Shown: positions 831-36,793, counted from the first letter of the stretch. The stretch: DNA of 64,000 nucleotides from Methanobacteriota archaeon (GCA_017885605.1 JAFNFT010000071.1:85519-149518), one strand, 5' to 3'. Notes: generated from the sequence alone by a model not told the origin. Numbers and translations: made by a program.

Positions 831-1281
831 GCGACAACGAACTCTGCCGTATAGAGGCTTCTTTTCCAGGGGTGGATGAATCTTATTGCTTCATGTGTAA
901 TCAGCATAGAAGTCTTTGCTATCCTCTTTTCGATTGAGAAAAAAAAAGATAAAATGTACCACGTGTTTGTTGGAAAGAATGAAACAATGTTTTGTCTTCT
1001 TTTTGTTATGTTAATGTCTTTATTAGTGCTCATTTAGTGTTTCATCATCCGTGACGCTTGATAGGAGATGATTTTGGCGATAGAATTCAGAGGGAGAACA
1101 AAAAGAATGAGAAGGAATGCCGTAGCATAAACTATTATTGCGAGCGCTGGGTATTTTGTTCCGAGTTGAAAGTAGGTTCTTATCAAGATTGGAAATCGTT
1201 CGTTTTTTAGAATGGCTATACTCGATTTCTTCCGCAGATATTATATACCTAAAAAATTATTCACCTGTGGCAATTACGATA

Positions 1282-1299
1282 GTAATTGTTAACAATTAC
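1282..1299. promoter_or_regulatory. Perfect 18-bp palindrome gtaattgttaacaattac (overlapped by a caattac-N4-gtaattg inverted repeat at 1271-1289) ~55 bp upstream of the histidine kinase start
   Basis: Read directly; its own reverse complement. Lies in the 520-bp intergenic region before the 1354 gene. Candidate operator. Confidence 0.35.
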
Positions 1300-1353
1300 G
1301 TATTTACCTTACTTGGATGGGATGCTATACGAACTATAAATTAGCGACTCTAA

Positions 1354-3321
1354 TTGGCGGAGAATTTATCACTAAGATGTTTTGGATGGGGATATTTAAT
1401 GCAGAATGTTACTGACCTCGAGCAGCAGACAGAACGAACCGTTCAGGATGCTCGTGAATACGCTGGAAGCATTGTAGAGACGCTCCGAGAGCCTTTGATA
1501 GTGCTTGATGCTGACTTAAAAGTAATCTCAGCTAATCGTTCCTTTTACCAGACCTTTAAAACGAAACCCGAGGAGACTGAGGGGAAATTGGTCTACGACA
1601 TAGGTAATCAGCAATGGAATATTCCAAAGCTCCGAGAGCTTTTGGAGGAGATTTTACCCAAGAATACTTCTTTCGACAACTTTGAGGTTGAGCATGATTT
1701 TCCTCATCTTGGTAAACGAATAATGCTCTTGAATGCTCGATTGGTACCCCAGCCGCCAGCAAAACCCCGAATAATGCTTCTTGCTATTGAGGATATCACA
1801 GAACGCAAGCAGGTTGAACAAATAGCCAACGATGCTCGTGAATACGCTGAAAGCATTGTAGAGACGCTCCGAGAGCCTTTGATAGTGCTTGATGCTGACT
1901 TAAAAGTAATCTCAGCTAATCGTACTTTTTACCAGACCTTTAAAACGAAACCCGAGGAGACTGAGGGGAAATTGGTCTACGATATAGGTAACCAGCAATG
2001 GAATATTCCAAAGCTCCGAGAGCTTTTGGAGGAGATTTTACCCAAGAATACTTCTTTCGACAACTTTGAGGTTGAGCATGATTTTCCTCATCTTGGTAAA
2101 CGAATAATGCTCTTGAATGCTCGATTGTTACCCCAGCCGCCAGCAAAACCCCGAATAATGCTTCTTGCTATTGAGGATATCACAGAGCGTAAATGGGCGG
2201 AGGCGCTGAGGACTTCGGAGATCCGGTATCGTCGGCTCTTTGAGTCGGCCAAAGACGGAATTATAATCCTCGATGCTGAGACCGGGATGATTGTAGACGC
2301 GAATCCGTTCTTAATTGAGATGTTGGGTTACTCAAAAGAACAGTTCCTGGGAAAGTCAATCTGGGAAATGGGGCTTCTCAAGGGTATCGTCACCAACAAA
2401 GACAAATTCATGGAATTGCAACGACAGGAATATGTCCGCTACGAGGATTTGCCGCTGAAAACCGCCGATGGGCGCCGTATCGAGGTGGAGTTCGTCAGTA
2501 ACGTCTATGTAGTGGACCACCAGAAGGTAATCCAGTGCAACATCCGGGACATCACCGAACGTAAGCAGATGGAACATAAACTTAATGAAGCGTATCAAAA
2601 AATCAAAACACATACCAAGGAACTTGAGATGATCAACGAAAATCTGGACAGTTTTGCATATTCTGTCTCTCATGATCTTCGCACACCACTTCGGGCTATA
2701 AGTGGCTTCGCCCAAGTGTTAAAAGATACACACGGCGATAAAATCGACGAGGAGATGCGACATTATCTAAACAGAATTAGTGAAGGCGCTCAAAAAATGG
2801 GCCAATTAATCGATGATCTCCTCGGTTTCTCAAGGGCTACCCGGAGCGAGATAAAATATAAGACGATAAATGTTGAAAATATCGTTAATGATCTCGTAAA
2901 GGCATATCGTGATGTCGAACCGGATAGGGACATTGAATTTATTGTGAATCCATTAGGGGAAGTTGAAGCAGATAAAGAAATGCTAAAGGTTGTTTTTTCT
3001 AATCTTCTGCAAAATGCAGTTAAATTCACTATCGATCGGAAAAAGGCTCGTATTGAGATTGGAAGCGAGCAGAAAGAGGATCATATTCAATTTTATGTTA
3101 AAGATAACGGTATAGGTTTTGATATGAAATATAAAGATAAATTGTTCGTTGCCTTCCAGCGGATCCAAACAGATCAAAGGTTCACGGGTACTGGAATAGG
3201 TCTTACAACCGTGAAAAGGATAGTAACCAAACATGGCGGAAATATATGGGCCAATGGAGAGGTTGATAAAGGAGCAGAATTCTATTTTACTCTGCCTTCC
3301 AAGACGCATGTAAAAGATTGA
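1354..3321 (+). CDS. Cytoplasmic sensor histidine kinase with two tandem-duplicated PAS-like modules, a third PAS, HisKA and HATPase_c
   Basis: H-box VSHDLRTPLRAISGFAQVL and G-box region GTGIGLTTVKRIV...HGGNIWANGEVDKGAEFYFTLP. Three DITERK PAS linkers. No TM segment. Alternative start ATG at 1399. Confidence 0.9.
   Translation: MAENLSLRCFGWGYLMQNVTDLEQQTERTVQDAREYAGSIVETLREPLIVLDADLKVISANRSFYQTFKTKPEETEGKLVYDIGNQQWNIPKLRELLEEILPKNTSFDNFEVEHDFPHLGKRIMLLNARLVPQPPAKPRIMLLAIEDITERKQVEQIANDAREYAESIVETLREPLIVLDADLKVISANRTFYQTFKTKPEETEGKLVYDIGNQQWNIPKLRELLEEILPKNTSFDNFEVEHDFPHLGKRIMLLNARLLPQPPAKPRIMLLAIEDITERKWAEALRTSEIRYRRLFESAKDGIIILDAETGMIVDANPFLIEMLGYSKEQFLGKSIWEMGLLKGIVTNKDKFMELQRQEYVRYEDLPLKTADGRRIEVEFVSNVYVVDHQKVIQCNIRDITERKQMEHKLNEAYQKIKTHTKELEMINENLDSFAYSVSHDLRTPLRAISGFAQVLKDTHGDKIDEEMRHYLNRISEGAQKMGQLIDDLLGFSRATRSEIKYKTINVENIVNDLVKAYRDVEPDRDIEFIVNPLGEVEADKEMLKVVFSNLLQNAVKFTIDRKKARIEIGSEQKEDHIQFYVKDNGIGFDMKYKDKLFVAFQRIQTDQRFTGTGIGLTTVKRIVTKHGGNIWANGEVDKGAEFYFTLPSKTHVKD
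1447..2190 (+). repeat. Near-perfect tandem duplication, 384-bp unit x ~1.9, in frame, duplicating one 128-aa PAS-like module
   Basis: Copy 1 starts at 1447 (gatgctcgtgaatacgctggaagc) and copy 2 at 1831 (gatgctcgtgaatacgctgaaagc). I count only about six substitutions by eye over ~360 bp. The antisense ORFs 1556-1762 and 1940-2146 are near-identical shadows of it. Confidence 0.9.
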
Positions 3322-3351
3322 AAAATGATGTAAAAAAGGTTGTAATAAAGT

Positions 3352-3795: not shown

Positions 3796-3965
3796 GTACA
3801 AATCTATGAAAAATCGATTCCAAGAGCTGCTGAACTCTTCGATAAAGAAGTTGCTGGGGACGAAGTGCATTGCAAAATGCAGGGCAATGAAAAATGTCTA
3901 TTTAGAATCATGGAGCAAAAAGAATCGGAGGAAAAAACAAGAGAAAGAATCAAAAAGATGTTGAA

Positions 3966-4535
3966 ATGAAAACAGAACAAATAGAGAAGATAAAAAATGC
4001 ATTCAACGATTTACCAGAACACTGGCTATTACTATTCTTAATTAACGCCGAAGATTATCTGGAGAAAAATATAGCAATCCTAAACGAAGTATTAAAACAA
4101 GAAGACGTTGTTGGTGTTTATGTCACCTTAAACCGACCTTATTCAGTGTTAATAAAAATTTTAGAGAAAAACAACATCAATACAGACAAATTATTCTTCA
4201 TAGACTGTATAACAAAAACATTAGGACTGGAAAGAGAAGAAAAGAAATGTTTATTTTTAGAAAATCCACAGAATTTGACAAATATTGCAATAGCAATAGA
4301 TGAAATCATGAGTGCGATACCAGCAAAGAATAAATCGCTGTTTGTTGACCCTATGAGCACATTGTTGATTTATAACAGGGTTGAAACTGTTTCAAAGTTT
4401 CTACATGTTCTCACAGGAAAGATACGGGTTTTGAATTTAAACGGGGTTCTACTTTCTGCAGAGAAAGAACTTGATCCTGAATTCGCAGATCAATTGGAGC
4501 AATTTGTTGACAAAACAGTAGATTTAAGCAAATAA
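3966..4535 (+). CDS. DUF835-like protein (paralog 1 of 4 free-standing copies)
   Basis: C-terminal SLFVDPMSTLLIYNRVETVSKFLHVLTGKIRVLNLNGVLLS...EKELDPEF matches my recollection of the DUF835 consensus (…vlLDglEYLllhNgFe.vlkFlh.l.d.....n..lli.idp.al.e.e...L). FIDCIT is a Walker-B-like strand. No Walker A. Confidence 0.5.
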   Translation: MKTEQIEKIKNAFNDLPEHWLLLFLINAEDYLEKNIAILNEVLKQEDVVGVYVTLNRPYSVLIKILEKNNINTDKLFFIDCITKTLGLEREEKKCLFLENPQNLTNIAIAIDEIMSAIPAKNKSLFVDPMSTLLIYNRVETVSKFLHVLTGKIRVLNLNGVLLSAEKELDPEFADQLEQFVDKTVDLSK

Positions 4536-4586
4536 AATATGAATAAGAGAAAGATGCAAAAAAATTATTGTTGATGGTGTTGTAAG

Positions 4587-5141
4587 GTGCAGGAAGAAAT
4601 TGTAACTATTGATAAAAAAATGATTGAACTTAAAAATTATGAAAGTGTTTTAATAATTGAGAATGTGAAATCCTTACGGGCAACAGTAAATGAAATTTTA
4701 AAAACTCTTCAAGATAAACCTATTATTTACCTTAATTTAACTACTACATATAATTCATTAGTATCAAATTTAAAAAAGGATGGGCTAAAGATAGATAATA
4801 TTCTATTTATTGACTGCATTACACAGTTAGCTGGAGGTACTGTCAGTGATCAAGAGAATGTTTTATTTATTAAAGAGCCAAATGATTTAACCAGTTTAGG
4901 AATCGCGATCTCTCAATTTTTTGAAAACATACTTGGTGAGAAATGGCTTGTTTTATATGGTTTTAGTATTTTTAAAATTTACAATAAAGAAGATATTGTT
5001 TTAAGGTTCATTCAATCTATTTTTGAAAATGCCTCAATGAATAATGCAAAAATTGTTATTTTATCGACGCAAGTAAAGAATGATAGTCTAATTAAAAAAA
5101 TGGCTCATTTTTTTGAAAAAGTTGTTATGGAAATTGAGTAA
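4587..5141 (+). CDS. DUF835-like protein (paralog 2)
   Basis: Same length class and motifs as 3966 (IYLNLTTTYNSL..., ILFIDCITQLAG, LVLYGFSIF..., KIVILS). Preceded by an SD-like gtaaggtg. More divergent than the others. Confidence 0.4.
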   Translation: MQEEIVTIDKKMIELKNYESVLIIENVKSLRATVNEILKTLQDKPIIYLNLTTTYNSLVSNLKKDGLKIDNILFIDCITQLAGGTVSDQENVLFIKEPNDLTSLGIAISQFFENILGEKWLVLYGFSIFKIYNKEDIVLRFIQSIFENASMNNAKIVILSTQVKNDSLIKKMAHFFEKVVMEIE

Positions 5142-5143
5142 AA

Positions 5144-6337
5144 ATGACGCAAGAAAAGAGTGAACAAAATATTGAGCGCTTGGAATTACGGAATAAGGAG
5201 AAAGCAGAATTACTACACAAGAAGCTAGATGAAAAACAAGCAAAACAGCAAGCAAAGCAGAAAGAGCGGGACGCAAAAAGACTAGCAAAAGAACATGAAG
5301 AGAAGTTACGATTAGAGCGATTAGAATTACGCATGAATGAGAAAGCAGAATTACTACACAAGAAGCTGGATGAAAAACAAGCAAGATGGGAAGCGAAGGA
5401 GAGGGGGCGGGAGGAGGAAAGACGCGCAAAGGCGGAACTGAAATCGAAGCAGCGCATACTTGCCTTAAAAGAACTTGAATGGAGGACAAAGGAAAAAGAA
5501 GAACGTATACAAAAAAAGATTGAAGAAAAAAAAGCAAAACAGGAAGAAAAAGAAAAACAACATCGTCTCAAAGAACGTGAAGAGAAATCACGGTTAAAAC
5601 AGGTAGAAATACAAGAGGAAAAAGAGAAACAGAAAAAATTGGAAGAGAAACTTGCAAAACGAGACGCAAAGGAAAAAGAACATGAAGCAATAAGACGTGA
5701 AAAAGAAGAGGAAAGAAGAAAGCAGCAAATTCTTTCTATGAAAGAAATGGAAATAAAAGAAAACGAAAAGGAAGAACAAAAACAGAAACATGTTAAGGAA
5801 AAAAGAGAAAGACTACATTTAAGTGAACTTGATTTCGGAAAAGCAAAAGATGATGGGGCTATAGAAGAACGTAAAAAAGCGGAAAAAATAAAAAATACGA
5901 TGTCTTTAGTAAGAATTGCCGCAGAAGAAAAAGAACTCCGTAAAACCAAAGTTTTTGAACGAAAGATGAAAAAAGAGATGAAAAAAAATGAAAAAGAAGA
6001 ACAAAAATTCAAAATGAAGGAAGAGATGAATGCGAGGAAAAAAATGGCTGTACATATACAAGAAGAAATCATTAAGGGAAAAATCAGTGGTCAAAAAGAA
6101 AGGAGTGATGCATTCGTTGCATTTGATGGTATTGATGAAGAAACCGCGATTTATCTCTTCGAGAATGGATATAACACAGTAGAAAAATTGCGACAGACAA
6201 CGGTTAAAGATCTTATGAAAATTGGTTTAAGGAAAAAAATTGCCCAAAGGATAGTTGCTGAATGTGAAGAATTTGTTGAATGGGACGTGTATGACGCTGA
6301 TGAATATACTACGAGAAAATCCGATACACTACTCTGA
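5144..6337 (+). CDS. Lys/Glu-rich coiled-coil protein with a C-terminal helix-hairpin-helix (RadA/Rad51 N-terminal-like) domain
   Basis: About 300 aa of KEKxELxxKK heptad-like charged repeats, including an internal near-repeat ERLELRNKEKAELLHKKLDEKQA at aa 12 and aa 58 (nt ~5180 and ~5318). C-terminal GIDEETAIYLFENGYNTVEKLRQTTVKDLMKIGLRKKIAQRIV resembles a HhH pair. Its start is 3 nt after the 4587 gene's stop. Confidence 0.55.
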   Translation: MTQEKSEQNIERLELRNKEKAELLHKKLDEKQAKQQAKQKERDAKRLAKEHEEKLRLERLELRMNEKAELLHKKLDEKQARWEAKERGREEERRAKAELKSKQRILALKELEWRTKEKEERIQKKIEEKKAKQEEKEKQHRLKEREEKSRLKQVEIQEEKEKQKKLEEKLAKRDAKEKEHEAIRREKEEERRKQQILSMKEMEIKENEKEEQKQKHVKEKRERLHLSELDFGKAKDDGAIEERKKAEKIKNTMSLVRIAAEEKELRKTKVFERKMKKEMKKNEKEEQKFKMKEEMNARKKMAVHIQEEIIKGKISGQKERSDAFVAFDGIDEETAIYLFENGYNTVEKLRQTTVKDLMKIGLRKKIAQRIVAECEEFVEWDVYDADEYTTRKSDTLL

Positions 6338-6409
6338 ACCCATAGAGGTTTCACCCGATATAAAAAGAGGTATTTGTAAAGTAAAATTTATATGCGATCA
6401 AACTATTCG

Positions 6410-6440
6410 TAATTTATATGTAATTTATATGTAATGTGTA
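6410..6440. promoter_or_regulatory. Direct repeat cgtaatttatatgtaatttatatgtaatgtg (unit tatatgtaattta x2) ~140 bp upstream of the KaiC-histidine kinase gene; TATA-like
   Basis: Read directly. AT-rich tandem motif in the 237-bp intergenic region. Confidence 0.25.
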
Positions 6441-6574
6441 TTGTGAGCGGGTAAGATGGGATGCAAAAAAACAGTTTCAATTAAGATTAGATTAACAAGA
6501 ATGTTATATATCACTTTATTTGCAACTATAATTCCGTTAATTTCTTTCTTTAAAAAACAAATTGCTTTAGATTA

Positions 6575-9500
6575 TTGGTGAAGGAGATGCAAAACAAAAA
6601 AAATCTCAATCAATTTTCCCAACAGCATCAGAGTGTTGTTCAAGAAGTTGAACAAATATTACAGGAAAAAAAATACGTCATACCACCTGAAAAACTACTA
6701 TCGCTTGATAATAATTTCCCATCTGCATTCAATGTTTCTTTTACGGGTATAAAAGAGTTTGATCAACTTCTTGATGGCGGATTTACTAAGGGTTCAATTA
6801 TCTTGCTTGCCGGATCATCAGGAAGCGGCAAAACTATCTTTTCCTTCCAATGGCTTTTTGAAGGAATTAAAAACAATGAAAATGGAATCTATATCACTCT
6901 TACAGAACCGCTTTTCAAAACCTTAGAAAATCTTGAAAAACTAAGTTTTTACAATAAAGAAGCTATAGAAAATGAAAAATTGAGAATCGTTGATCTGCGG
7001 AAGATATATGAAAAGGAAGGTTTTGACCAGCAAAAAATCCTCGATTTTATTGAAAACGAGGTCAAACGAACAAATGCAAAACGACTATGCATTGATTCGA
7101 TTACCGCTATCGCGTATCAGCTTGATGATAGGGCCAAGATTAGAGCTTTTATATTTGCTCTAGGTACGACACTTGCAACACTCGGTTGCACAACTGTTTT
7201 AACCAGTGAAGTTTCTGAAATGAATAAATACTCTAAGTACGAAGTCGAGGAATTTATATCTGATGCAATTTTACGATTTGATCAAATTAAAGAAAAAGAC
7301 GAACCACAAAGAATAATACAGATAATCAAAGTGAGAGGGAGAAACCATAGGTCAGATGACATTTATTTCAAAATTACAAAGGATGGCATCACCGTTTTTC
7401 CTAAACTCAGGATTCCGCTTGAACATTTTTCTACGACAGAACGGATCTCGATGGGCATTTCTACGCTGGATGACATGTTAGGCGGAGGTATTTTTGTTGG
7501 TTCTTCTACACTCATAACTGGTTCGCCTGGAACCGGAAAATCTACGTTGGGTTTAAGTTTCCTTGCTGAGGGATTGAAAAATGGGGAGATGTGCCTGTAT
7601 GTTGGATTCGAAGAAAGTAAGAAACAAGTATTAAGAAACGCCAAAAATTTTGGATGGGATTTCGAGAAGTCCGAAAGAAATGGTCTTCTTGTCATGCGAT
7701 GTATTTATCCGAACGAAAAGCATCTTGAAGAACATCTAGCAGATATAAGAAAAATAGTGGAAGAAAAAAAAATTAAAAGATGTGTTGTTGACCCTCTCTC
7801 TGCCATTTCGAGTGCGTTCTCACCGGATGCATTTATAAGTTTTTCAAAACGACTTAATGGATATTTGAAAACTCGTGAGGTGACTCCTTTATTTACATCA
7901 ACCACAAACTCGCTCATAGGCAATACAAAAGATGTAGATTCGCATATTTCTACGATATCAGATAATATTATCTTGTTGCGTTATGTTGAAATGCAAGGTG
8001 ATGTACAGTTTGTAATAAACATTATCAAAATGAGAGGGAGTGAGCATAGCAAAAATCTAAGAATGTACAACATAACAGATAAGGGCTTAGTCGTCGGTAA
8101 AAGTCTCGAAGGTTATGAAGGTGTTACAACTGGTGTCAGTAAAAAAATTGCTGAACTCGAGAAAGAAGGTTTGGAACTTAAGGAAGTTATCAAGCAGAAA
8201 GAAATGGCGGAAAAGGTTCTGCGAGAGAGCGAGGAGAAATTTAGATTATTGTTTAATGACTCTCCTTTAGGTATTGCACTGGTAGATCCAGAAGGAATCA
8301 TTAAAGAAGTAAACAGCAGCTTACTTCAGCTGTTATCAATACGAAAAGAAGAATTTATCGGTAAAAACTTTGTTCAATTAATCTCAGTTTATGGTTTAGA
8401 TGTCCAAGAGCAAACCTCAGATTTCAAAAACAGAATTGCCGGAAAACCATCAAAAAGTGAAATAACATTTTTATCTAAAGACAACAAGAAAGCGACGATG
8501 ACGGTACAGAGTTCGATTATTAAAAGTAACGATGTAATAATTGGTGTTCTCTTCATTTTAGAAGACATCACCGAGCGTAAGCGGGTGGAGGGTATGCTAA
8601 GTGAGACGAATCAATACCTCGAAAACCTATTCAACTATGCAAATGCTCCTATCATCGTCTGGGATGCACAATTCGCAATCACCCGTTTCAATCATGCCTT
8701 CGAATCGTTGACCGGCCGGAGCGTGAAAGATGTTATCGGAAAAACTCTTGAAATTCTCTTTCCCCCAGACCTGGTGGAAAGTTCAATGGAACTAATTCGA
8801 AAAACGCGGGAAGGGAAACAATGGGAGGTGGTCGAGATTGATGTTCTGCATCTCGATGGATCAAGGAGGACCGTCCTCTGGAACTCAGCCAACCTTTTCG
8901 CCCCAGACAGTAAGACTCTCATCGCCACAATTGCGCAAGGTCAAGATATCACCAAACGCAAGCGAGCACTGGACGAATTGAAGGTAGCTAATGAAAAACT
9001 TAATCAAATAAAATCAGATTTTTTCGAAGTGACAACTCGCGAAATAAGATCGCCGTTAACTACAATAAAAGGATATATGGAAATGTTGTCAAATCGAACC
9101 TTTGGTGAAATAAATGATGAGCAAAAAAAATATCTTGATATAATGTTACGGAATACAAATCAGCTTGACAACCTTGTATCAGATCTTGTGGGCATTTCAA
9201 GCATTGAATCAGGGGATATGACTTTTACTTTGAAAAAAACGAGTATTAGTAAGATGGTGAATGAAGCAGTTGAAAAAATACAGTCATCTGCAGATGTAAA
9301 AAACATTGCAGTCAATGTAGAAATAGAGGATCAAATACCTGATTTAATCGTTGACCAAGATCGGATAAAACAAGTCCTTATAGATATACTCGGGTACACA
9401 ATAAAATTCTCACCAGATAAAACTACGGTTAATATGCGCGCAAAAAAACAAGAAACCGATGTTTTATTCGAGATTCAAGACCAAGGATTGAATATACCAA

Positions 9501-9792: not shown

Positions 9793-10380
9793 ATGTTAAA
9801 AGATGAAACAAAAAAATCTATTGAACAAGCAATACAAATGGACAAACATGGCGTCATAATTATGATAGAACTTCCAATAAATGCTTATTTTGAAATGAAT
9901 TCTTCCACCATTAAAATATTGACAAACCATGGTTTTCAAGGGATATACATTAGCTTTCAGAGACCGTTTAATAACATATCTTCCTTTTTTGAATCTGAGG
10001 GAATAGACACTAATACACTATTATTTATAGATGCTGCAACAGCCCTTTCCGGTGAAAAACAACATGAAGATGCTCGTTGTATACATGTCTCCCAAGAACT
10101 CGATATTGATGAACTGGTAAAAGCCATCTATCTTTCTCTGCCAAAGCTAAAAAGCCAAAAAAAGTTTATTTTTATCGATTCATTAACTACAATATCTCTT
10201 TACAAACCATTATCTCAAATAATGAGATTTTCAGAATTCCTGATGAGGACAGTACGTAAAGAAAACGAGGAAAATGTTATACTCATTTTTAACGTGGCAA
10301 AAGATCTCGCCCAAAAAAAATTTATCAGAGAGGTAGCCTTCCATGTGGACCAAGTAATAAGTGTGGATAATAATGAATGA
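9793..10380 (+). CDS. DUF835-like protein (paralog 3)
   Basis: GIYISFQRPFNNI...LLFIDAATALSG...KFIFIDSLTTISLYKPLSQIMRFSEFLMRTV...VILIFNV: same pattern as 3966. Starts 24 nt after the KaiC-histidine kinase stop. Confidence 0.45.
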   Translation: MLKDETKKSIEQAIQMDKHGVIIMIELPINAYFEMNSSTIKILTNHGFQGIYISFQRPFNNISSFFESEGIDTNTLLFIDAATALSGEKQHEDARCIHVSQELDIDELVKAIYLSLPKLKSQKKFIFIDSLTTISLYKPLSQIMRFSEFLMRTVRKENEENVILIFNVAKDLAQKKFIREVAFHVDQVISVDNNE

Positions 10381-10930
10381 TCTAGAAAAAATTTCTCAAG
10401 AATTAAACAATCTGCCAAAAGGCTGGATTGTAATGCTGGAAACTTCTCCAGAAAAAATGTTAGAGGTTTCTTTGTCAACGATAAAATTTTTATCTGATGA
10501 AAAAAACTACATTGGAATTATCGTATCAGCAAGCAGACCTCAAAAAAATTTGATACAACTCTACCAACAAAAAAAAATCGATATTAAAAAAATTCTCATT
10601 CTCGACTGTATCTCAAAAAGCCAGAGTTTGGACCTGGAGGAAGCGAGCAATGTTATATATCTTGAATCAGTATCTTCTCTTACAAATATTTCACTTGCAA
10701 TAACAGCGAGTATTCAACGAATACCGGGAGATAAATTTGTTTTTATTGACTCTATCAACAGCATGCTTATTCATAACAAACCTGAAGTTTTTGCTCAATT
10801 CATTCATGGGATTTTAACTAAGCTGAGAATTGGCGGGATAAACGGTTTACTTATTTCTCTAGAACATGAAACGAACAAAGAGATACATGCAGAAATTGCA
10901 CAACTGTGCGATCGGATTGTGAAAATATAA
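10361..10930 (+). CDS. DUF835-like protein (paralog 4)
   Basis: KFVFIDSINSMLIHNKPEVFAQFIHGILTKLRIGGINGLLISLEHETNKEIHAEIAQL is the strongest DUF835-type match of the four. Overlaps the upstream paralog by 20 nt and the downstream kaiC by 25 nt. Confidence 0.5.
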   Translation: MWIIMNDLEKISQELNNLPKGWIVMLETSPEKMLEVSLSTIKFLSDEKNYIGIIVSASRPQKNLIQLYQQKKIDIKKILILDCISKSQSLDLEEASNVIYLESVSSLTNISLAITASIQRIPGDKFVFIDSINSMLIHNKPEVFAQFIHGILTKLRIGGINGLLISLEHETNKEIHAEIAQLCDRIVKI

Positions 10931-11853
10931 TGGATGAAAAAAAGAGTAAACAAAGTAATATCTTTGACATGGCTAAAATCAAAGCAGAGATTGAGAATAA
11001 GCTAAAGGGTACTGATGACAAAGGTTATTCCACGGGAGGAACTTTAGAACAAAAAACGCAACAGTTGCATGAAACAAAAAATGAAGCTAAAACGGGAAAA
11101 AAATTTGTTTTAACAGGCGTTTCCGGATTTGATGAACTATTTGAAAATGGCATACCAAAAGGTTCCAATATTCTCGTTGCTGGAGGTGCAGGTTCAGGAA
11201 AAACAATTTTTTGTCTACAAACACTGTGGTACCATATCTTATGTGGGGAAAAATGTTTTTACATGAGTTTTGAAGAATCTGAAAAAAGATTAATGGAACA
11301 TATGGAGGATTTTGGTTGGAATCCAGAAAAACTTCTCGCATCAGGTAACTTTAAAATCAAGAGGTATCTACCGAGCGATATTCATTATGTATCTGAAAAA
11401 GGTAACGATAATGCAATGTTTGCTAAAGAAGAGGACAGTCAACTTTTACAGTTAGAGCCAGTAACTTTGGAAGAAGGATTTAATCCTGATTTTGTTGTCA
11501 TTGATTCACTTACGGCAATTGCCTCGGCATTTATGGGAAAAGAAGGTTCGTACAGGTTTTATGCTGAGCGACTCTTCAGGTTTTTTGAAAATATGGGGAG
11601 TACAAATTATTTTATAACAGAGACCGGACAGATGCCAGAAACTTTTTCACAGACCGGTGTTGAGGAGTTCTTAGCTGATGGGGTGATTGTTTTGTATAAT
11701 ATTAAACGAGAAAATATGCGGGAACGCGCTATAGAGGTTTTGAAAATGCGTGGTACAAAACATCAAGAGAGAATAGTTGCAATGAAAATTTCCGAAAAAG
11801 GTATGGTTGTGTATCCAAAACAGGAGATTTTTGGTGAGATTCACACTAAATAA
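10906..11853 (+). CDS. Single-domain KaiC-like (RecA superfamily) ATPase
   Basis: Walker A VAGGAGSGKTIFCLQ preceded by the KaiC-like GVSGFDELFENGIPKGSNIL. Walker B DFVVIDSLTAIAS. Confidence 0.8.
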   Translation: MRSDCENIMDEKKSKQSNIFDMAKIKAEIENKLKGTDDKGYSTGGTLEQKTQQLHETKNEAKTGKKFVLTGVSGFDELFENGIPKGSNILVAGGAGSGKTIFCLQTLWYHILCGEKCFYMSFEESEKRLMEHMEDFGWNPEKLLASGNFKIKRYLPSDIHYVSEKGNDNAMFAKEEDSQLLQLEPVTLEEGFNPDFVVIDSLTAIASAFMGKEGSYRFYAERLFRFFENMGSTNYFITETGQMPETFSQTGVEEFLADGVIVLYNIKRENMRERAIEVLKMRGTKHQERIVAMKISEKGMVVYPKQEIFGEIHTK

Positions 11854-11946: not shown

Positions 11947-12777
11947 TCAAGAAGCTATCCACGCATCTATTTCTATGATGTTTAGAGCGAGATTAACGGT
12001 GGTGATTCCTAAAAATTCTATAGTTATTTCGCCAGTAGTATCCGTCACTGAAAAATTGGCTCCATAGGTAAGGTTTGCTGATTGTAATGTACTTTTAAAC
12101 GCTTGATGCCAGGCATTTGGATAATTTGTGGTAATTGTAATGTTTTTTATATTGTTCATCAAAGAAGTTTTATTACTAACGAATTCTGTCCGTATCGGAT
12201 AGGTTCCATATCCGCCTGCGGATGTTCTTCCACCAACTCCTGTGATGTTTACAATATCGAGGGTTAGGTTAACAACATTTACGTTTATTATTGCGGAAAA
12301 AGGTTTTATGGACATTACATTTCCTTCAGATTGATTCAATATTACAGATCCAGCCTCATAAATGTAAGATTGATCAAGATAGTATACATTTTTCGATGAA
12401 TATTTTATGATTCCAAGTGAATACGAAGCGGAGTTTGAGATATTTGTGATTGTCACTGTACAATTATTTGATAAAATCAGAAGAGACCCAAACGCTCTAC
12501 TCGCTGAGAAATAAGGTATTTCTTTATTTCCAAGAGTAATAGATGTTGACATTGGTGTTTTTTGCCCAGTTGCAGCTTGTATGTCTATCGCAGATTTTAA
12601 CTGAGAAAACTGATCTGCTACGTCACCCATATGCTCTGCTTCTATCGACCTCATCCATTTTGGCACATACGTGGTTTGTATCAATGAAATAACAATGACA
12701 ATGAGTCCTACAAGTAATATTGCAGTAATAATGCCTGCCACTGCATTATCCGAACACCATCTCTGGTTCACTCTCAT
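11947..12777 (-). CDS. Pilin-like protein with class III signal peptide / N-terminal hydrophobic helix (putative minor pilin), rich in N-x-S/T sequons
   Basis: N-terminus DNAVAGIITAILLVGLIVIVISLIQ, about ten N-x-S/T sequons. Last gene of the minus-strand pilus operon. Confidence 0.45.
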   Translation of the reverse strand: MRVNQRWCSDNAVAGIITAILLVGLIVIVISLIQTTYVPKWMRSIEAEHMGDVADQFSQLKSAIDIQAATGQKTPMSTSITLGNKEIPYFSASRAFGSLLILSNNCTVTITNISNSASYSLGIIKYSSKNVYYLDQSYIYEAGSVILNQSEGNVMSIKPFSAIINVNVVNLTLDIVNITGVGGRTSAGGYGTYPIRTEFVSNKTSLMNNIKNITITTNYPNAWHQAFKSTLQSANLTYGANFSVTDTTGEITIEFLGITTVNLALNIIEIDAWIAS

Positions 12778-21029: not shown

Positions 21030-21111
21030 TTATTAATACTCTATCCATCTGATGAATCCCATCCTCTATCAGTCCCTGTTTTTTTTTATGTAACCATCTG
21101 TAATGCTAGAA

Positions 21112-21127
21112 CATTACAATTGTAATG
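21112..21127. promoter_or_regulatory. Perfect 16-bp palindrome cattacaattgtaatg ~85 bp upstream of the pilus-operon ATPase gene
   Basis: Read directly; self-complementary. Embedded in tgtaaccatctgtaatgctagaacattacaattgtaatg, which has further GTAAT/ATTAC half-sites. Confidence 0.35.
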
Positions 21128-22616: not shown

Positions 22617-22974
22617 GTTTCTCCGCGCAACAATAAAATCATACTGTCTTTATATAATATGATTTAAAAAAATATAGAGTGATATACTTTTTGTTCATTT
22701 TATATTTGCAATGAAATGAGTCTAACATAAATAAGGGATGTGAGAAATACTTAGATATTGTTAAACTCATATCATTGCTTATCCGTATGGGTTCAATCCA
22801 ATTGTTATTGCAACAATTAATACCATAGGTATAACAACAGAAATTCCTCTATTATCATCTTTCACAAGTTTTCTATGTGCTTTTATCCTCATCACCACCT
22901 ATCAAATTAAAATTACGATAAAATTACAGAAGCATTACATAATATAAATATTTTTTGGTAGGCAGTTGAAAAAT

Positions 22975-23005: not shown

Positions 23006-24706
23006 TCATTCTTTTTCCAAACCAAACACATCTGCTCCTTTAAAACGCTCCTCGATATTAACAACAGATTCAACCGGTAAGGTAAACCGAAACGTACTTC
23101 CTTCTCCAGGTTTCCCTGTACTTTCAACCCAAATACGACCACCATGAGCAAGAATAATACCATAACAAATCGCAAGACCTAGGCCGGCTCCACCAAATTT
23201 TGTATCTGCATCAGAATCTACTTGATAGAAAGTCTGGAAGATTTTCTTATGATGTTCTTCTGGTATGCCTCTGCCGTAATCCTGCACCTCAAACAAAACA
23301 TCTTCCTTTTCTTTCCTTACTTTGATATGTATCATTGAACTATCCGGTGAGAACTTTATAGCGTTGTTTAAAAGATTGATGATAACTTGCGAAATCCGGT
23401 CTTTATCGATAGTTAATTCAGGGACATCTATTCCCATTTCTGCTATAATTTTTATTCTTTTTAAATCTGCGGATGCCTGCATAGTTTCCGCGACTTCTTT
23501 TACCATTTTTGTTACATCTGTTTTTTCAGTAACAAATTTCATCGTCCCAGATTCCAGTCGTGAAATATCGAGAATGTCTTGGATGAGACGATTCAGACGA
23601 TTTGTATTCCGTAAGATAACCTCCAAGGAATGTTTTTGTTCATCATTGATCGTTCCCAGATTACCTTTTAAAATCATTTGAATGTGGCCTTTGATCGCTG
23701 ACATCGGTGTACGTAGTTCGTGAGATGTGATATTTAAAAAAGCTGATTTTATTTGACTTAGCCGTCTTAGTTTATTAGTGGTTTCATCCAAATCCTTCAT
23801 GATGTTAAGAGTTGCGATCTCACTTTCTTTCAATTCAACAATTTTTTTATCGAGTTCTTTTGTTCGTCCTTCAATTTTTTCCTCAAGATTCTTTTGTGCA
23901 TCTAATAATTTTTTGCGCGCAACATTTAAAGATTGTCTCATTACTTCAAATGACTGACTCAATTCGCCTATTTCATCTTTTCTTTTAACATCCACTGTGA
24001 TATTAGTATTACCTATACTGATTTCTTTGGTGGTCTTGTTCAGTTTCTTAATATCTTTAATAAGTGTCAGAGAGAATAATCCAATGATACTTGCAGCAAT
24101 AAGAATCGCCACCCCGAGGATCCCATAAATCGTATTACCAATAAAATTCTGTTTTTCGATTACTTTCGTAATTGATATATCAAATCCAACGATCGCTACC
24201 ACAGTACCACTCGAAGTTTTTACCGGAGCATACCCTGAAAGAAGAGTCCCCCACCGGTCCGTAGAAAAATCTGTTTCTGCGATAGGGTGATCAAAACCTT
24301 GTAAGAGTACCGGGGTGGCGTTATAGATTTCGCCGATTGCAGCTCCGGGATCTTTAGGGTTACCATAATCTGCATCGACAATAAATTGAATTTGATTCGC
24401 AACTTTTCTCATTGTATAGACATATTTTATATCTGGATGAGAATCTCGTATATTCTTTAATTGGTCGCGAATTGATAGGAATTGAGTGGTATTTTCATTA
24501 CCAGGTTTCAATAAGGCAAGCGTGTCCCCATCTATCTGCGTTGCTGTTGTCGATGCCAGTGCGGTCAGTTCATCTCGTATTATTTCATTTAATGCTCTTT
24601 TTGCTTCAGTATATGTATATGTGAAGGTCAAGCCAGAAATGACTATTATTAAAACAATAAAACTTAGAATTAACTTTATTTGTAAGCTATGTATCATTTT
24701 GACCAT
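23006..24706 (-). CDS. Membrane sensor histidine kinase with extracellular Cache-like domain, HAMP/coiled coil, HisKA and HATPase_c
   Basis: TM1 ILSFIVLIIVISGLTF. A ~170-aa periplasmic domain. TM2 IYGILGVAILIAASIIGLFSLTLI. H-box TSHELRTPMSAIKGHIQMI. G-box GGAGLGLAICYGIILAHGGRIWVES. Confidence 0.85.
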   Translation of the reverse strand: MVKMIHSLQIKLILSFIVLIIVISGLTFTYTYTEAKRALNEIIRDELTALASTTATQIDGDTLALLKPGNENTTQFLSIRDQLKNIRDSHPDIKYVYTMRKVANQIQFIVDADYGNPKDPGAAIGEIYNATPVLLQGFDHPIAETDFSTDRWGTLLSGYAPVKTSSGTVVAIVGFDISITKVIEKQNFIGNTIYGILGVAILIAASIIGLFSLTLIKDIKKLNKTTKEISIGNTNITVDVKRKDEIGELSQSFEVMRQSLNVARKKLLDAQKNLEEKIEGRTKELDKKIVELKESEIATLNIMKDLDETTNKLRRLSQIKSAFLNITSHELRTPMSAIKGHIQMILKGNLGTINDEQKHSLEVILRNTNRLNRLIQDILDISRLESGTMKFVTEKTDVTKMVKEVAETMQASADLKRIKIIAEMGIDVPELTIDKDRISQVIINLLNNAIKFSPDSSMIHIKVRKEKEDVLFEVQDYGRGIPEEHHKKIFQTFYQVDSDADTKFGGAGLGLAICYGIILAHGGRIWVESTGKPGEGSTFRFTLPVESVVNIEERFKGADVFGLEKE

Positions 24707-29906: not shown

Positions 29907-30175
29907 AAAAAACCTCTCTAATATTTTAAAGGGTTTTCTCCTAAAATTGTAGCATCCACCTCAACGTCACAAAACAGCATCATTTCGTAACCCCTCATTT
30001 CCTTTTTCCCGCCACAATTAAATTACGCAAACATTACAATATAATACTTCTTTCTTATTTAACTTTAATGGACGAATCAAAAAAGTAAAAACAAAAAAAT
30101 CATCAGATGATCCTTATCTGATATGCAACAAAGTTGAATCAGGACGATATTTGGAGGAAGCAGCAATGTCTGGAC

Positions 30176-31848: not shown

Positions 31849-31935
31849 TCGAACTTTTAGATGTGACCTGAACTTTGTTTGGTCGTTTATTCCATACTCA
31901 AGCTCCTTATCGTGCAGGTAGTATCTTCTTATTCA

Positions 31936-31995: not shown

Positions 31996-32115
31996 CAATC
32001 AGATATTGATAGTGGTATTTGCGAGATTTAAGTATTACTCGGACAAGTTCAAATCATACGAATGAAAGATTACAGGAACACAAAATCAATATTCTGAACG
32101 GAGGAAAAAATCGTT

Positions 32116-32505
32116 CTACTGTTCCAACATAGTACGTACTCTGTTCAACAAATCATCCACATCAAAGGGTTTGGTGATATAATCGATAACCTTCAAATCA
32201 TTTAAAATCTGTTTTCCCTGTTCCTTAAAATTTGCAACGGTAAAAAACGCAATCTTGATATCCTTCAAACCAGGATCTTTCTCGGCTCTGATCGTTTTGC
32301 ATACTTCCCTTCCGCTCATCCCTGGCATAAACATGTCAAGCAATATAAGATCGGGTCTCTCGTCATCTTTCACGCTCCGTAATTTATCCAGTGCTTCTTT
32401 CCCATTAAAAGCGATGATGGTAGTATACCCTTCAGATTTCAGAAGTTTTTCAACCAGCTCCACGGTATCCCTTGTATCATCAACAATCATAATTTTTTTT
32501 ACCAT
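32116..32505 (-). CDS. Single-domain response regulator (CheY-like receiver)
   Basis: IMIVDDTRDTVEL...LILLDMFMPGMSGREV...FTVANFKEQ...YITKPF. Receiver-domain pattern with D-D-K residues. Confidence 0.85.
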   Translation of the reverse strand: MVKKIMIVDDTRDTVELVEKLLKSEGYTTIIAFNGKEALDKLRSVKDDERPDLILLDMFMPGMSGREVCKTIRAEKDPGLKDIKIAFFTVANFKEQGKQILNDLKVIDYITKPFDVDDLLNRVRTMLEQ

Positions 32506-33275
32506 TTTTCCTCACCCAGCACTCTATCCACAAGCATTGAAATGTCGTTTATGGTTTGTTTATCAAGAGATTCTATTTTTCCAATAAAAAAACCCTGGGC
32601 TCCATTTGATTTAATCAGGGAAGCAGTATCTTGGACAAAGAGCGGCATCTCAAATTTTTCAATATTCTTTACCGCAGAAACGTTATCCACAATAACGCAT
32701 TTTATATCTTTTTCCTTAAGTATCCTATCCAATGAGCTTTTGATATCACTTGGATTATTTTTTACCGTTACACAGTTTTTGGCGTTGCAATCTCCACCTG
32801 ATGCATCTAAAAATTGAAAGCCGGACGTATCTATTCCATACAAATCGAAAACATCAACTATCTTTTCGTACGGTACTTCCAGCGTCAAATAACAGATGCC
32901 CCGTATATTTTTAACAAGATCCACGAGCTTGCCTTCATATTTGTCCTTGGATGTGATTAAAAATGCTTGGCCAAAATCTGAAAGATTTTTGATAAGCGTT
33001 TTCAGTTTGTACAGTCCGATCACGAGGAAGAAAATAAAGACAATGGTGAATAACTCAGGAGCAATCGTTTGAGGTAAAATTAAAAATAATTCAAATATCT
33101 TAAACGTTTCTAACAAGACAAACGCTATCATGCCTATGAGAAGAAAAACAAAGCCTTGTCGTATCGCAGATTTGGTCCTTTTCATTATGGCAAACACTAT
33201 TCCAATGGTAAAGAGACCAAAACAGAATCCTATTATACTTAGGAGTCCTGATGCGGTCAACAGATCCATGTTCAC
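32499..33275 (-). CDS. Membrane protein (4 TM) with C-terminal cytoplasmic DUF835-like domain
   Basis: Four N-terminal hydrophobic helices. Then ICYLTLEVPYEKIVDVFDLYGIDTSGFQFLDAS...KCVIVDNVSAVKNIEKFEMPLFVQDTASLIKSNGAQGFFIGKIESLDKQTINDISMLVDRV, matching the DUF835-like pattern of the small paralogs. Overlaps the receiver gene by 7 nt. Confidence 0.45.
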   Translation of the reverse strand: MNMDLLTASGLLSIIGFCFGLFTIGIVFAIMKRTKSAIRQGFVFLLIGMIAFVLLETFKIFELFLILPQTIAPELFTIVFIFFLVIGLYKLKTLIKNLSDFGQAFLITSKDKYEGKLVDLVKNIRGICYLTLEVPYEKIVDVFDLYGIDTSGFQFLDASGGDCNAKNCVTVKNNPSDIKSSLDRILKEKDIKCVIVDNVSAVKNIEKFEMPLFVQDTASLIKSNGAQGFFIGKIESLDKQTINDISMLVDRVLGEEKW

Positions 33276-33475
33276 TGTCTACCCGCAGTTTTTATGAATT
33301 TTTGGAGATCTTTCACAGAAACAGTGAGAACCTCGCTCGTAGCAGGTTTACGATCCAACATTTTTCTCACGCTATCTCGGACCGCTTCAGATCTATTTGG
33401 ATAGGTGCCCTGTTGTATCAAAACATCAATTCTCTCCAACATATTTTTTGTCAATCTTATTTGAAGTGTTTCCAT
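33272..33475 (-). CDS. Ribbon-helix-helix (CopG/Arc/MetJ-like) transcriptional regulator
   Basis: IRLTKNMLERIDVLIQQGTYPNRSEAVRDSVRKMLD is a textbook beta-alpha-alpha RHH. The 4-nt ATGA overlap with the downstream membrane-DUF835 gene implies an RHH / DUF835 / receiver operon. Confidence 0.6.
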   Translation of the reverse strand: METLQIRLTKNMLERIDVLIQQGTYPNRSEAVRDSVRKMLDRKPATSEVLTVSVKDLQKFIKTAGRQ

Positions 33476-33599
33476 TTTTTATCACGTCCATTTTTCTTTT
33501 TTTGATATTATTTTTGTGCTGCTTATACCATTACAACACAATTACGTATAAGCGTGCATGTTTTATAAAATTATCTCTTTCGAAAAATCAGGATTTTTT

Positions 33600-34199
33600 T
33601 CATTTAAAAAATTTCTCCAATTCAATAAACTTCTTCAAATCATCCTCGGAAACCTTCAATTTTGATATCCGCCTGTGCTCATGAAACAATCCACCGACCG
33701 TAATAATCAATGCCCCGCCCATGACATACTCGATCAATAGTTGCTGATTCGCTGACACCTCAACGACACTAAAGGATTTACTCGCTTCCACATATTTCGT
33801 CCCATCAAGCGAGGTAACATTTGCTTTCACGAGATAGACCCCACCTTTAATGGTTTCTGGTAATTGTATCTCCTCGGAAAAAGAACTTAACGTTTCTATT
33901 GCCACGGTTGTACTTTCAACCAAAATACTGTTGTCTTTTAAATCAGTTACCTCGTAGGTAACCTTCACATCAACCCTGCCCGATGATTTTGAGTTTCTGA
34001 TCTCCGTAATAATGTGGAACGATTGACCTGGTCGAAATGTATCGCCCTCTACGACCGACACGGAGATCGCTAGCGATGCAGTAGATTCTGAAATGACCGT
34101 TGCCCCACACAGGAGTGAAAAAAGAAAATATGCGACGAACAAGAGTATGCAAATCTTTCCCAAGCTACTTTTGAACCCATGGTGCAATCCCATAGCCAC
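33600..34199 (-). CDS. Hypothetical secreted/membrane-anchored protein (N-terminal TM or signal, beta-rich ectodomain, C-terminal TM)
   Basis: N-terminal ICILLFVAYFLFSLLCGATV and C-terminal GGALIITVGGLF followed by a basic tail. No recognisable motifs. Confidence 0.4.
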   Translation of the reverse strand: MAMGLHHGFKSSLGKICILLFVAYFLFSLLCGATVISESTASLAISVSVVEGDTFRPGQSFHIITEIRNSKSSGRVDVKVTYEVTDLKDNSILVESTTVAIETLSSFSEEIQLPETIKGGVYLVKANVTSLDGTKYVEASKSFSVVEVSANQQLLIEYVMGGALIITVGGLFHEHRRISKLKVSEDDLKKFIELEKFFK

Positions 34200-34346
34200 G
34201 CTCCGATATACAAAAATGAAATAGGAAGATATTGTTTAAATTTTTTGATTGATAGTTTCTTTCGAACGAGGGCGTAAAAAGAGAATGACAAGTTTTTCCA
34301 GTAGCGTGGTCGCTTTCCCGTCTCACGGATCTTTCTTCCTTGTCAA

Positions 34347-35327: not shown

Positions 35328-35456
35328 CTTTCCCCGGCATTTAGATGATGTAACAGTTTAATTACCTTTTTCTTTTAAAAAAGGAAGAGTATAAATATAA
35401 CTTTACATATACAGTACATAAGTGATGTTTAAAAATCACAACGTGAGGGTGATGAG

Positions 35457-35720
35457 ATGATAACAACTGTAACAACTACGACAACCACTGTCGTTGCGAC
35501 AACTACCACGACAACGGCAGCAATATCGATAACTGCCTCCTTGGCAATAATAGGCACAATTGTTTTAATATCACTCCTCATAGCAAAGGAGCTTTTATCA
35601 TCACATGAGGCAGAACGAACACAGTTTTTATCGGACAGACTCAGCATCGCCATCGTACCACTATTGATGATGTTTGCGATGATTGTCATAACAAAAATAG
35701 TGGATGTTCTTCATTTTTAA
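35457..35720 (+). CDS. Small Thr-rich membrane protein (poly-Thr N-terminus, 2 predicted TM helices)
   Basis: SD-like gagggtgatgag 7 nt before the ATG. TTVTTTTTTVVATTTTTT, then AAISITASLAIIGTIVLISLLIA and LSIAIVPLLMMFAMIVITKIV. The antisense ORF 35429-35689 is its Val-rich mirror; which strand is real is uncertain. Confidence 0.25.
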   Translation: MITTVTTTTTTVVATTTTTTAAISITASLAIIGTIVLISLLIAKELLSSHEAERTQFLSDRLSIAIVPLLMMFAMIVITKIVDVLHF

Positions 35721-36577
35721 ATCAGAACGAGCGGGCAGATTATAAAAAGAAATACGTTCACTACTGTGTGTGATATACTTACTCCTATAACTGTTTTGGT
35801 TGTTTTTACGACGACGGCGTATAATCCACCGATAGAAAAAACAAGCAGCACGTCCAGCAAAGAGAGATTTCCAATGTGAAGCACCGCGAAAATAAGGGTG
35901 ATAAAAAATATGCCCGGCCATACTCCAAGGATGTCTGTAGATTTTTTTTGAAGAAGTCCTCTGAAGATTAATTCCTCCATGAGTCCCGTTGCTATGAACA
36001 AGATCAGAACAGCTACGATGATGTTTTCTATGGAAAATGAGTCAATAAAAGGGGTAGGCCTTAGTATATAATACTCTGCGAATCCTAAAGGTATTCCAAG
36101 CAGTATGATGCCAACCTCTATGGGAATGTGTTTTTTGGTTGGAAGCCGTAGGCCGCATTCCTTGATATTGATTTTTTGCTGAAATAATAAGACGAAAAAT
36201 GCAAGATAGACTGCAACGCCGATGATGATAAACCATTGTATGCGTGGAAAATGAGAGAGCGGCATGACCAGGCTTAAGATGCGTATGAGCGGGACAAGGG
36301 TGAGAGCAAGGAGTATTGAGGTAAGTTTTACCCTGTTGTCTATAAGTTTCTGTACTAGGCTTGAAGGTTTTTTCTTCTCTTTGATCATGAGCCATTGTAA
36401 TTTGTTTATTGACATTTTTTCTTTATTTATGAATCCCGAATGAATGAAGAGCAGACAGAGAATGATGATGTGGAAGAATATCCCTGCCTGTGGACTGACA
36501 TATGCGACAGTAATTTCTGCGAGAGTTATGAGAATGAGATACAGTAAGAGGTACTGTCCGTCCGATATTTTGTTCAT
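35717..36577 (-). CDS. CPBP family intramembrane glutamic endopeptidase (CAAX protease / Abi domain)
   Basis: Motif 1 GLMEELIFRG and motif 2 FAVLHIGN. Multi-TM. Confidence 0.8.
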   Translation of the reverse strand: MNKISDGQYLLLYLILITLAEITVAYVSPQAGIFFHIIILCLLFIHSGFINKEKMSINKLQWLMIKEKKKPSSLVQKLIDNRVKLTSILLALTLVPLIRILSLVMPLSHFPRIQWFIIIGVAVYLAFFVLLFQQKINIKECGLRLPTKKHIPIEVGIILLGIPLGFAEYYILRPTPFIDSFSIENIIVAVLILFIATGLMEELIFRGLLQKKSTDILGVWPGIFFITLIFAVLHIGNLSLLDVLLVFSIGGLYAVVVKTTKTVIGVSISHTVVNVFLFIICPLVLI

Positions 36578-36793
36578 TCAGACAAGGAATCGATATAGTG
36601 CATATAAAAATTACGGGGAAATTACGCATGGTGGACAATTTTAGTCTTTTAAAACCACTATCTTTATAAATAAAAAAAATATTACATTAGTAATTGTATC
36701 GTAATGTATTTGTGTTGCTCTCTTGCAGCACAAGTGGGGGTGATGTAATCGATCACATACTACCCGAAATACACTAGGATGGATAATCAAACT

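Follow-up and report, generated by a model that had tools for sequence, protein, structure and literature searches.

The 64,000-nucleotide stretch analysed here (JAFNFT010000071.1:85519-149518; the window) comes from an uncultured Thermoplasmata/Thermoplasmatota archaeon, of a lineage for which all known genomes are metagenome-assembled (Lac Pavin sediment is one source). It holds eight intact arrays of the pentamer GTAAT (ATTAC where a unit is inverted) and one decayed array, all of them intergenic and all inside 1.2–36.7 kb. One array lies in the promoter of a gene for a small ribbon-helix-helix (RHH) protein, which heads an operon with a membrane protein resembling an inactivated KaiC (iKaiC) and a stand-alone receiver (REC). 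The arrays are a real, sharply defined and evolutionarily conserved family of cis-elements, and the RHH protein is the candidate for their binder. The arrays and the genes of the RHH locus are the following.

1273–1299: array A, with ATTAC at 1273, GTAAT at 1282 and ATTAC at 1295; inverted neighbours make an 18-bp palindrome
6409–6435, plus strand: array B, three direct GTAAT units at 11-bp spacing
21100–21126: array C, with GTAAT at 21100, ATTAC at 21113 and GTAAT at 21122; holds a 16-bp palindrome
22912–22938, minus strand: array D, three direct units with GTAAT on the minus strand
30022–30037, minus strand: array E, two direct units
33530–33545, minus strand: array F, two direct units, GTAATTGTGTTGTAAT, in the promoter of the RHH gene
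33563–33570, minus strand: TTTTATAA, TATA box for the RHH gene, lying 17 nt upstream of array F and conserved independently of it
35413–35439: decayed array, AGTAC-N4-GTGAT-N8-ATCAC, with the 9/13 geometry intact and one substitution per unit
36610–36625, minus strand: array G, two direct units abutting a conserved TATA box, TTTTATAT (36602–36609)
36681–36705, plus strand: array H, with ATTAC at 36681, GTAAT at 36690 and GTAAT at 36701; the first unit is inverted
33272–33475, minus strand: RHH gene, encoding a 67-amino-acid (aa) ribbon-helix-helix protein, candidate array binder
32499–33275, minus strand: second gene of the operon, a 258-aa protein with three N-terminal membrane helices and a KaiC-like domain without Walker A
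32116–32505, minus strand: third gene of the operon, a stand-alone receiver with the DD/D57/T/K residues intact
33600–34199, minus strand: single-pass membrane protein with a weak, sub-threshold MG2-like ectodomain match and a cytoplasmic tail, KLKVSEDDLKKFIE

Compared with 2000 dinucleotide-preserving shuffles, the intergenic DNA of the window (5,330 bp) is enriched in ATTAC/GTAAT, with 35 copies against 16.7 ± 3.9 expected (maximum 31), and far more strongly in pairs of units phased in a fixed geometry, of which there are 13 against 0.055 ± 0.24 expected (shuffle maximum 3). The 58.7 kb of coding DNA contain two such pairs. In a scan of all 5-mers at spacings of 6 to 15 across the window, ATTAC at spacing 11 ranked top, and GTAAT-N6-GTAAT has nine exact matches where 0.22 would be expected. 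The window has a G+C content of 29–42% and its intergenic DNA one of 25–37%, and because of this richness in A and T short words of that kind recur by chance, but the phased pattern does not. AT composition, which the initial annotation had named as a possible cause of the motif's frequency, thus fails to explain it in the window. The two coding pairs lie at 12714–12729, in the N-terminus of a DUF7289 pilin-like gene, and at 24159–24172, in a HAMP histidine kinase gene; they could be chance occurrences, or could mark internal or antisense promoters.

The geometry is simple. Adjacent units start 11 bp apart on the same strand (nine cases, eight of them intergenic), 9 bp apart when ATTAC is followed by GTAAT, and 13 bp apart when GTAAT is followed by ATTAC; with the unit centred on the second A of GTAAT, all three distances are 11 bp from centre to centre. 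Related loci were retrieved from genome and metagenome collections using the 258-aa protein as a query, with homologues down to 43% identity, and the 181 non-redundant adjacent pairs from all of these loci peak at the same values (11 direct, 43 pairs; 9 for ATTAC..GTAAT, 17; 13 for GTAAT..ATTAC, 15), other spacings forming a low background. Arrays hold two to three copies in the window and up to four in relatives. The unit is a 7-bp box, yGTAATKk, in a profile of 202 distinct contexts, where position +2 is G or T in 96% and A in 4%, and position +3 is T or G in 82% and C in 12%. GTAAT is invariant in this profile by construction, exact matches having been collected, and the strictness of the pentamer rests instead on a one-mismatch search. 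That search added four matches to the exact ones, with ~7.5 expected by chance at up to one mismatch; since the gain is no greater than chance the pentamer is strict, and the weaker arrays were dropped.

The words and palindromes picked out in the initial annotation are all present in the sequence, and most of them resolve into the arrays. The 18-bp palindrome gtaattgttaacaattac at 1282–1299 and the 16-bp palindrome cattacaattgtaatg at 21112–21127 belong to arrays A and C, ATTAC-atta-GTAAT...cGTAATgta (36681–36708) coincides with array H, and the 'aattac repeats' at 22912–22938 and 6409–6435 are three direct units each. The 12-mer ACAATTACGTAT is found exclusively at 1292 and 33538 (0.03 expected), and the 11-mer AACATTACAAT at 21110 and 30030 (0.14 expected), with a further copy, overlooked earlier, on the minus strand at 12134 within coding sequence. 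The same annotation proposed a common operator family of the form GTAAT-Nx-ATTAC. Its sharing among signalling and pilus promoters is borne out, but the palindromic form is not: 34 of 60 non-redundant arrays are direct repeats, and palindromes arise in the smaller number of arrays that have inverted neighbours.

We identified the genes next to the arrays by Pfam scans of those covering 1–38 kb, together with NCBIfam. Array A is ~100 nt upstream of a PAS histidine kinase (ATG at 1399 in the public gene call), array B precedes a KaiC-PAS histidine kinase (start about 6575–6587), and array E is 115 nt upstream of a 1715-aa multi-PAS histidine kinase (29906, minus strand). Array C is 70 nt upstream of an operon for a type IV pilus/archaellum-type ATPase, T2SS-F and pilin (21029, minus strand), array D is directed at a PKD/NosD surface-protein gene (22616, minus strand), and array G precedes a gene for a CPBP/Rce1-like protease (36577, minus strand). 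Array H lies 3' of the TATA box tttataaata and heads the apparently structured leader of an operon with a 138-aa gene and a glycosyltransferase (36812, plus strand), and the decayed array occupies the promoter of a Thr-rich small open reading frame (ORF; 35457–35720, plus strand). By our own count, the window and its flanks have roughly 25–35 promoter regions, and arrays are present in only 8 of them; there are none in the glycosylation region at 37–64 kb, nor within ~6 kb past either window end. In the other loci ten genes 3' of arrays could be assigned, four encoding receiver-only proteins, five PAS/kinase proteins (one with a receiver domain as well) and one a giant protein with weak domain matches; one additional gene downstream of an array gave no domain match. 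The targets in the window and in the other loci constitute a signalling, pilus and cell-surface regulon.

The arrays are conserved among relatives, and near-identical strains (L001–L010) were left out of this evidence as too similar. The RHH-promoter array is the most conserved of all: the arrangement TTTTATAA-N17-GTAATTG-N4-GTAATG is retained in all of the ~17 non-redundant lineages of the near clade, and the DNA between and around these blocks is variable. Orthologous arrays persist where the neighbouring 258-aa protein has fallen to 47–66% identity, while their flanks drift. Array E is retained at orthologous genes in L011, L016, L018, L035, L037, L038 and L042, array G in L019, L023, L042, L048 and L056, and array H in L013, L023, L042 and L056; the arrangement of array C is found also in L052, and L038 has an array orthologous to array D at 20628. 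An unbiased 5-mer scan of the diverged loci gave the same top rank to ATTAC at spacing 11, which forms 17 pairs in their 9.5 kb of intergenic DNA. The counterpart of the decayed array is intact, with two or three exact units, in the near-identical L002, and is intact also in L030, L056, L019, L023, L042 and L048; the array at 35413–35439 is, judged from these sequences, a natural strain-level loss of a putative operator. In L016 a promoter of the array E type, TTAAATAA-N17-GTAATGTTTACGTAAT, occurs twice, at 5874 and 8873, 3 kb apart, which points to a probable promoter duplication with or without the kinase gene.

The position of the arrays relative to the core promoter is best seen at the RHH gene, although all transcription starts given here are predictions from TATA spacing. 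There, 17 nt lie between the end of the conserved TATA 8-mer and the first box, and in L013, L048 and L054 the ATG follows this box at a distance of just 31 nt, which includes a GGTGAT Shine-Dalgarno sequence, so that the upstream TATA box must be that of the RHH promoter. The predicted start is the TG after the first GTAAT (about 33539–33540), inside array F, which would therefore span about −6 to +10; arrays placed in this way would in general cover about −6 to +10/+21. Array G, by contrast, abuts its conserved TATA box, TTTTATAT, 24 nt ahead of the CPBP start codon, an arrangement seen in six lineages; this is the position of the TFB recognition element (BRE), and the CPBP mRNA is probably leaderless. 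Among 23 other non-redundant direct arrays, a TATA-like box is found at the upstream offset in 12 and abutting the last unit in 8. Either placement would be expected to interfere with assembly of the pre-initiation complex, and activation from the BRE-abutting position may be possible.

The RHH protein matches Pfam RHH_1 (E 5.9e-7) and RHH_8, and the RHH domain of NikR in the PDB (E 7e-4). Its best NCBIfam model is CdrS (NF058555; E 4.2e-12 over residues 1–46), at 45.9 bits and so short of that family's cut-off of 100 bits; the NikR RHH domain ranks next. An AlphaFold2 (AF2) model has an extended strand (residues 2–9), helices at 10–21 and 28–42, a flexible linker (44–53) and a C-terminal helix (54–64) that carries VSVKDLQKFI. 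T3, Q5 and R7, which are predicted to face the DNA, are invariant in 35 RHH homologues. No other DNA-binding domain was detected among the window genes scanned against Pfam (1–38 kb), and no other DNA-binding gene is linked in any related locus. The initial annotation had suggested the protein at 33272 as the regulator, and the array in its own promoter, its standing as the sole DNA-binding match and the precedent of other RHH proteins make it the best candidate that the sequence offers.

The operon of RHH, membrane iKaiC and receiver genes is conserved in all relatives, the RHH gene always coming first, and the gene for the single-pass membrane protein is always directly upstream of the RHH gene. 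The relationship of the 258-aa protein to KaiC is drawn from weak precomputed Pfam matches in its homologues and from the missing Walker A motif; a profile of the family compared with PDB sequences gave nothing useful. The C-terminal tails of the RHH protein (EVLNVSVKDLQRFIK, encoded at 33272–33340) and of the membrane protein (ISKLKVSGKDLKKFIE, 33600–33650) share the motif L-x-V-S-x-x-D-L-x-K/R-F-I in the window and in L013 and L015–L063. The motif occurs in more than 20 lineages, the far clade included, and the F is replaced by Y in both tails of L027. This common motif suggests that both tails may dock on one partner, iKaiC or the receiver. Elsewhere in the window, two sets of short KaiC-like or inactivated-KaiC genes of the DUF7504/DUF7090 type (3966–5141 and 9793–11853) flank the KaiC-PAS histidine kinase, and for a Thermoplasmata genome the region is unusually rich in genes of the KaiC family and of two-component systems.

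Operators built as arrays of short boxes are familiar for RHH proteins. Arc/Mnt, CopG, omega and ParR bind such arrays with one RHH dimer per box and cooperative contacts between neighbours, the boxes being direct or inverted (as in the omega heptads), and the repeats of Arc and of ParR-parC (plasmid R1) have ~11 bp spacing on one face of the DNA. The boxes of the ParG tetramer, with AT-rich spacers, are a further RHH array of short boxes in either orientation (PMC3130281). Like these classical operators, the present locus encodes an RHH protein and has several short boxes at fixed spacing, with an array in the regulator's own promoter; unlike them, it places the arrays in chromosomal archaeal promoters and a dispersed regulon, and not in bacterial phage or plasmid sigma-70 promoters or centromeres. 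An RHH-type repeat operator is of a known kind. What varies here is that the phasing is strictly 11 bp whatever the orientation, that the regulon is one of signalling genes, and that genes for a membrane KaiC-like protein and a receiver are linked to it.

Two archaeal RHH regulators offer closer comparisons. The site bound by aCcr1 of Sulfolobales is AGTATTA, also given as A(T/G)G(A)TA(G)A(T/G)TACN, and its authors noted a resemblance to the core of the CdrS motif (PMC9976878, PMC9976892). We read the aCcr1 box as a palindrome, GTA(A/T)TAC; GTAAT then supplies five of its seven positions on one strand, and the centre of the palindrome coincides with the unit centre derived here from the geometry. 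The TATA-N17-array placement at the RHH promoter corresponds to the aCcr1-type position, array G, upstream of its TATA box, being an exception. The present unit, however, does not complete the palindrome (GTAAT is followed by K K, not A C), and it occurs in strict 11-bp phased arrays of two to four copies in either orientation. The hosts differ as well (Thermoplasmata here), as do the targets, which are signalling, pilus and surface genes and not cdvA or cell-cycle genes, and the RHH gene shares its operon with the KaiC-like protein and the receiver. The likeness to aCcr1 described here is one of box and of small RHH protein. CdrS regulates multiple targets and has a symmetric motif (PMC8406309), and its N-terminus in Haloferax volcanii, read from a cloning primer, is MERVTLRIP, similar to METLQIRLT here. 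CdrS is, however, co-transcribed with ftsZ2 and binds mostly 41–110 nt upstream of starts, whereas here iKaiC and REC genes are downstream in every locus and the arrays sit at the start site or the TATA box.

Several other archaeal and bacterial systems were considered and set aside. EarA sites consist of repeated 6-bp TACATA boxes. They resemble the present arrays in being repeated boxes by the promoter of an archaellum/pilus-type operon, and an EarA gene occurs in the relative L015; but EarA, a winged-helix activator, has its sites upstream of the BRE, and the box sequence differs. EarA (PF07381) was rejected as the binder, with none among the window proteins scanned and the EarA gene of L015/L020 lacking an array. 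CsmR of Haloferax has a different motif (TATCA-N4-TGATA), and its paper gives it no ribbon-helix-helix or CopG annotation. Sites of the OmpR/PhoB type are direct repeats with an 11-bp period and call for a response regulator that has a DNA-binding output domain, but all receiver proteins found carry a receiver domain only. No description of GTAAT repeats in archaea was found in the literature searched.

We consider it very probable that the arrays are operators for some regulator, and lean towards the RHH protein encoded at 33272–33475 as their binder. One RHH dimer would occupy each box; the orientation-independent spacing leads us to expect a two-fold symmetric module per box, and the 11-bp spacing, one helical turn, would set the boxes on the same face of the DNA. 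Through cooperative binding, adjacent dimers would prevent TFB or RNA polymerase from being recruited, giving repression. The RHH protein would regulate its own operon in this way, along with the histidine kinases, receivers, type IV pilus operon, large surface proteins, CPBP protease and glycosylation operon, and its activity would probably be set through the conserved C-terminal tail by the membrane KaiC-like protein, the receiver or both. This explanation in its entirety, from operator arrays and cooperative repression to autoregulation, the signalling and surface regulon and control through the tail, has in our judgement slightly better than an even chance of being right.

A number of observations weigh against it. 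The box is not itself palindromic, its right half being TKK and not TAC, and direct arrays mostly point along transcription, a bias that a fully symmetric binder does not obviously explain. The placement of many arrays other than that of the RHH gene is ambiguous, because a TATA-like box can be found on either side, and the predicted nature of all the starts, already mentioned, counts here too, as does the RHH protein's score below the CdrS cut-off. All sampled relatives are centred on the same neighbourhood, which limits the view of the regulon to that neighbourhood. In the far clade (L026–L028) the operon and T3, Q5 and R7 are retained and the arrays are absent, and the 5-mer scan found no replacement phased 5-mer there; L029 has only a degenerate version, GTAGT-N6-GTAAT, whose distance from the TATA box is unchanged. 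Covariation of RHH residues with the box offers little leverage, T3, Q5, R7 and the pentamer all being invariant in the near clade, and an N11D change in the far clade does not follow the loss of arrays cleanly, since L029 retains the degenerate array.

The main alternative is that the arrays are genuine operators for another regulator, encoded outside the window, for instance a paralogous RHH protein such as a true CdrS or a helix-turn-helix protein, with the RHH-iKaiC-REC operon as one target among others. A promoter array shows its gene to be regulated, not to encode the regulator; the part of this genome covered is only about 76 kb, the low CdrS score makes paralogues plausible, and the far clade, which keeps an RHH protein with identical strand residues and has no arrays, somewhat favours this alternative. 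It is nevertheless the RHH-promoter array that is the most invariant throughout the near clade, none of the loci links another DNA-binding gene, the EarA genes found have no array upstream, and the motif fits the binding sites of RHH regulators of this type. We regard an outside regulator as possible but rather unlikely. A lineage-specific core-promoter element (BRE, TATA or initiator), read by the basal machinery or by an alternative TFB or TBP, is far less probable. Fixed distances between array and TATA box and the direction of the direct arrays along transcription would suit such an element, and in arrays B and G, where GTAAT is followed by a T-rich stretch, the sequence does resemble a BRE plus TATA box. 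The initial annotation raised the same idea as a BRE/TATA variant, and it fares poorly. Such an element should coincide with TATA/BRE at about −26 to −35 and be present at most promoters, but the RHH promoter has its own conserved TATA box 17 nt upstream of the array, units vary from two to four and can be inverted at constant spacing, boxes occur downstream or upstream of TATA, and most promoter regions of the window and its flanks are without an array.

Similarly improbable, and by our estimate marginally more so, is that GUAAU boxes act in RNA, at the 5' ends of leaders, through protein binding or leader structure. The predicted RHH start inside the array would have its downstream units transcribed, most direct arrays are in sense orientation, and a conserved leader hairpin directly follows array H. 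Yet inverted units stand within single arrays at the exact DNA spacing, array G, upstream of its TATA box, would escape transcription, and at gathering thresholds an Rfam scan covering the whole window was negative. As for chance in AT-rich intergenic DNA, or duplicated promoters, the low intergenic G+C content would help such an account, and some GTAAT-N8-ATTAC kinase promoters share longer similarity and may be paralogous copies. The arrays, however, precede unrelated genes with unrelated flanks and are conserved where flanks have diverged, and the shuffles, the scan of independent loci, the conservation of the RHH promoter and the count of exact matches refute this explanation.

Many histidine kinases and receiver-only regulators are found in archaea, with almost none that have a DNA-binding output (PMC5847659), and how archaeal two-component systems reach transcription is an open question to which an operator, a candidate binder and candidate inputs are relevant. 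One doubtful possibility is that the four conserved genes form an undescribed archaeal signal-output module, in which the two tails compete for iKaiC or the receiver and link receiver-only systems to DNA. The RHH repressor would be held or released through its short C-terminal docking helix, and the module would use the phased GTAAT arrays to exert feedback on the cell's own repertoire of kinases and receivers, as well as on genes for pili and the surface. In that case transcription would be reached, through such a module, by the receiver-only two-component systems that are dominant in archaea and have no known route to DNA. RHH-bound arrays would also extend the emerging view of small RHH proteins (CdrS, aCcr1) as archaeal multi-target regulators, and would give a testable wiring diagram for a kinase-rich Thermoplasmata lineage that cannot be cultivated. 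The exact, orientation-independent 11-bp spacing makes regulon prediction straightforward in related metagenome-assembled genomes.

Some features near the arrays merit description. The leader of the 138-aa gene/glycosyltransferase operon (36706–36811 in the window; 15419–15520 in L013; also in L023, L042 and L056) is conserved and looks structured. A hairpin, TTTGTGTTGC...GCACAA, directly follows array H. Next come a second hairpin, in which compensatory changes are visible by eye (GTGAT/ATCAC, ATATG/CATAT, GTACC/GGTAC), and then CTAGGATGGATA; RNAalifold reported changes on both sides at only 2 of 23 pairs. Directly before the ATG of the 138-aa gene, at 36792–36814, is a 5-nt tandem repeat, GATGA/GAGAT, with four copies in the window and three in L002, L003 and L036; slippage in this repeat could alter the spacing before the start codon.

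A purine-rich box, GGATGGGATG or a close variant, is present at 1315–1324, 6454–6463 and 21055–21064 (minus strand) and in many related loci. About one in three of the non-redundant arrays has it 5–35 nt downstream, on the sense strand, and a start codon is not always near; in the window alone it is not significant (seven matches, 3.1 expected). The left flank (~6 kb left of the window; L073 1–7300) has no arrays and encodes three AAA_14/DUF4143 ATPases and a ParE/MazE-like toxin-antitoxin pair. The first ORF of the window (165–830) matches DUF4143 only, and possibly represents the C-terminal part of a gene for an ATPase of this kind.

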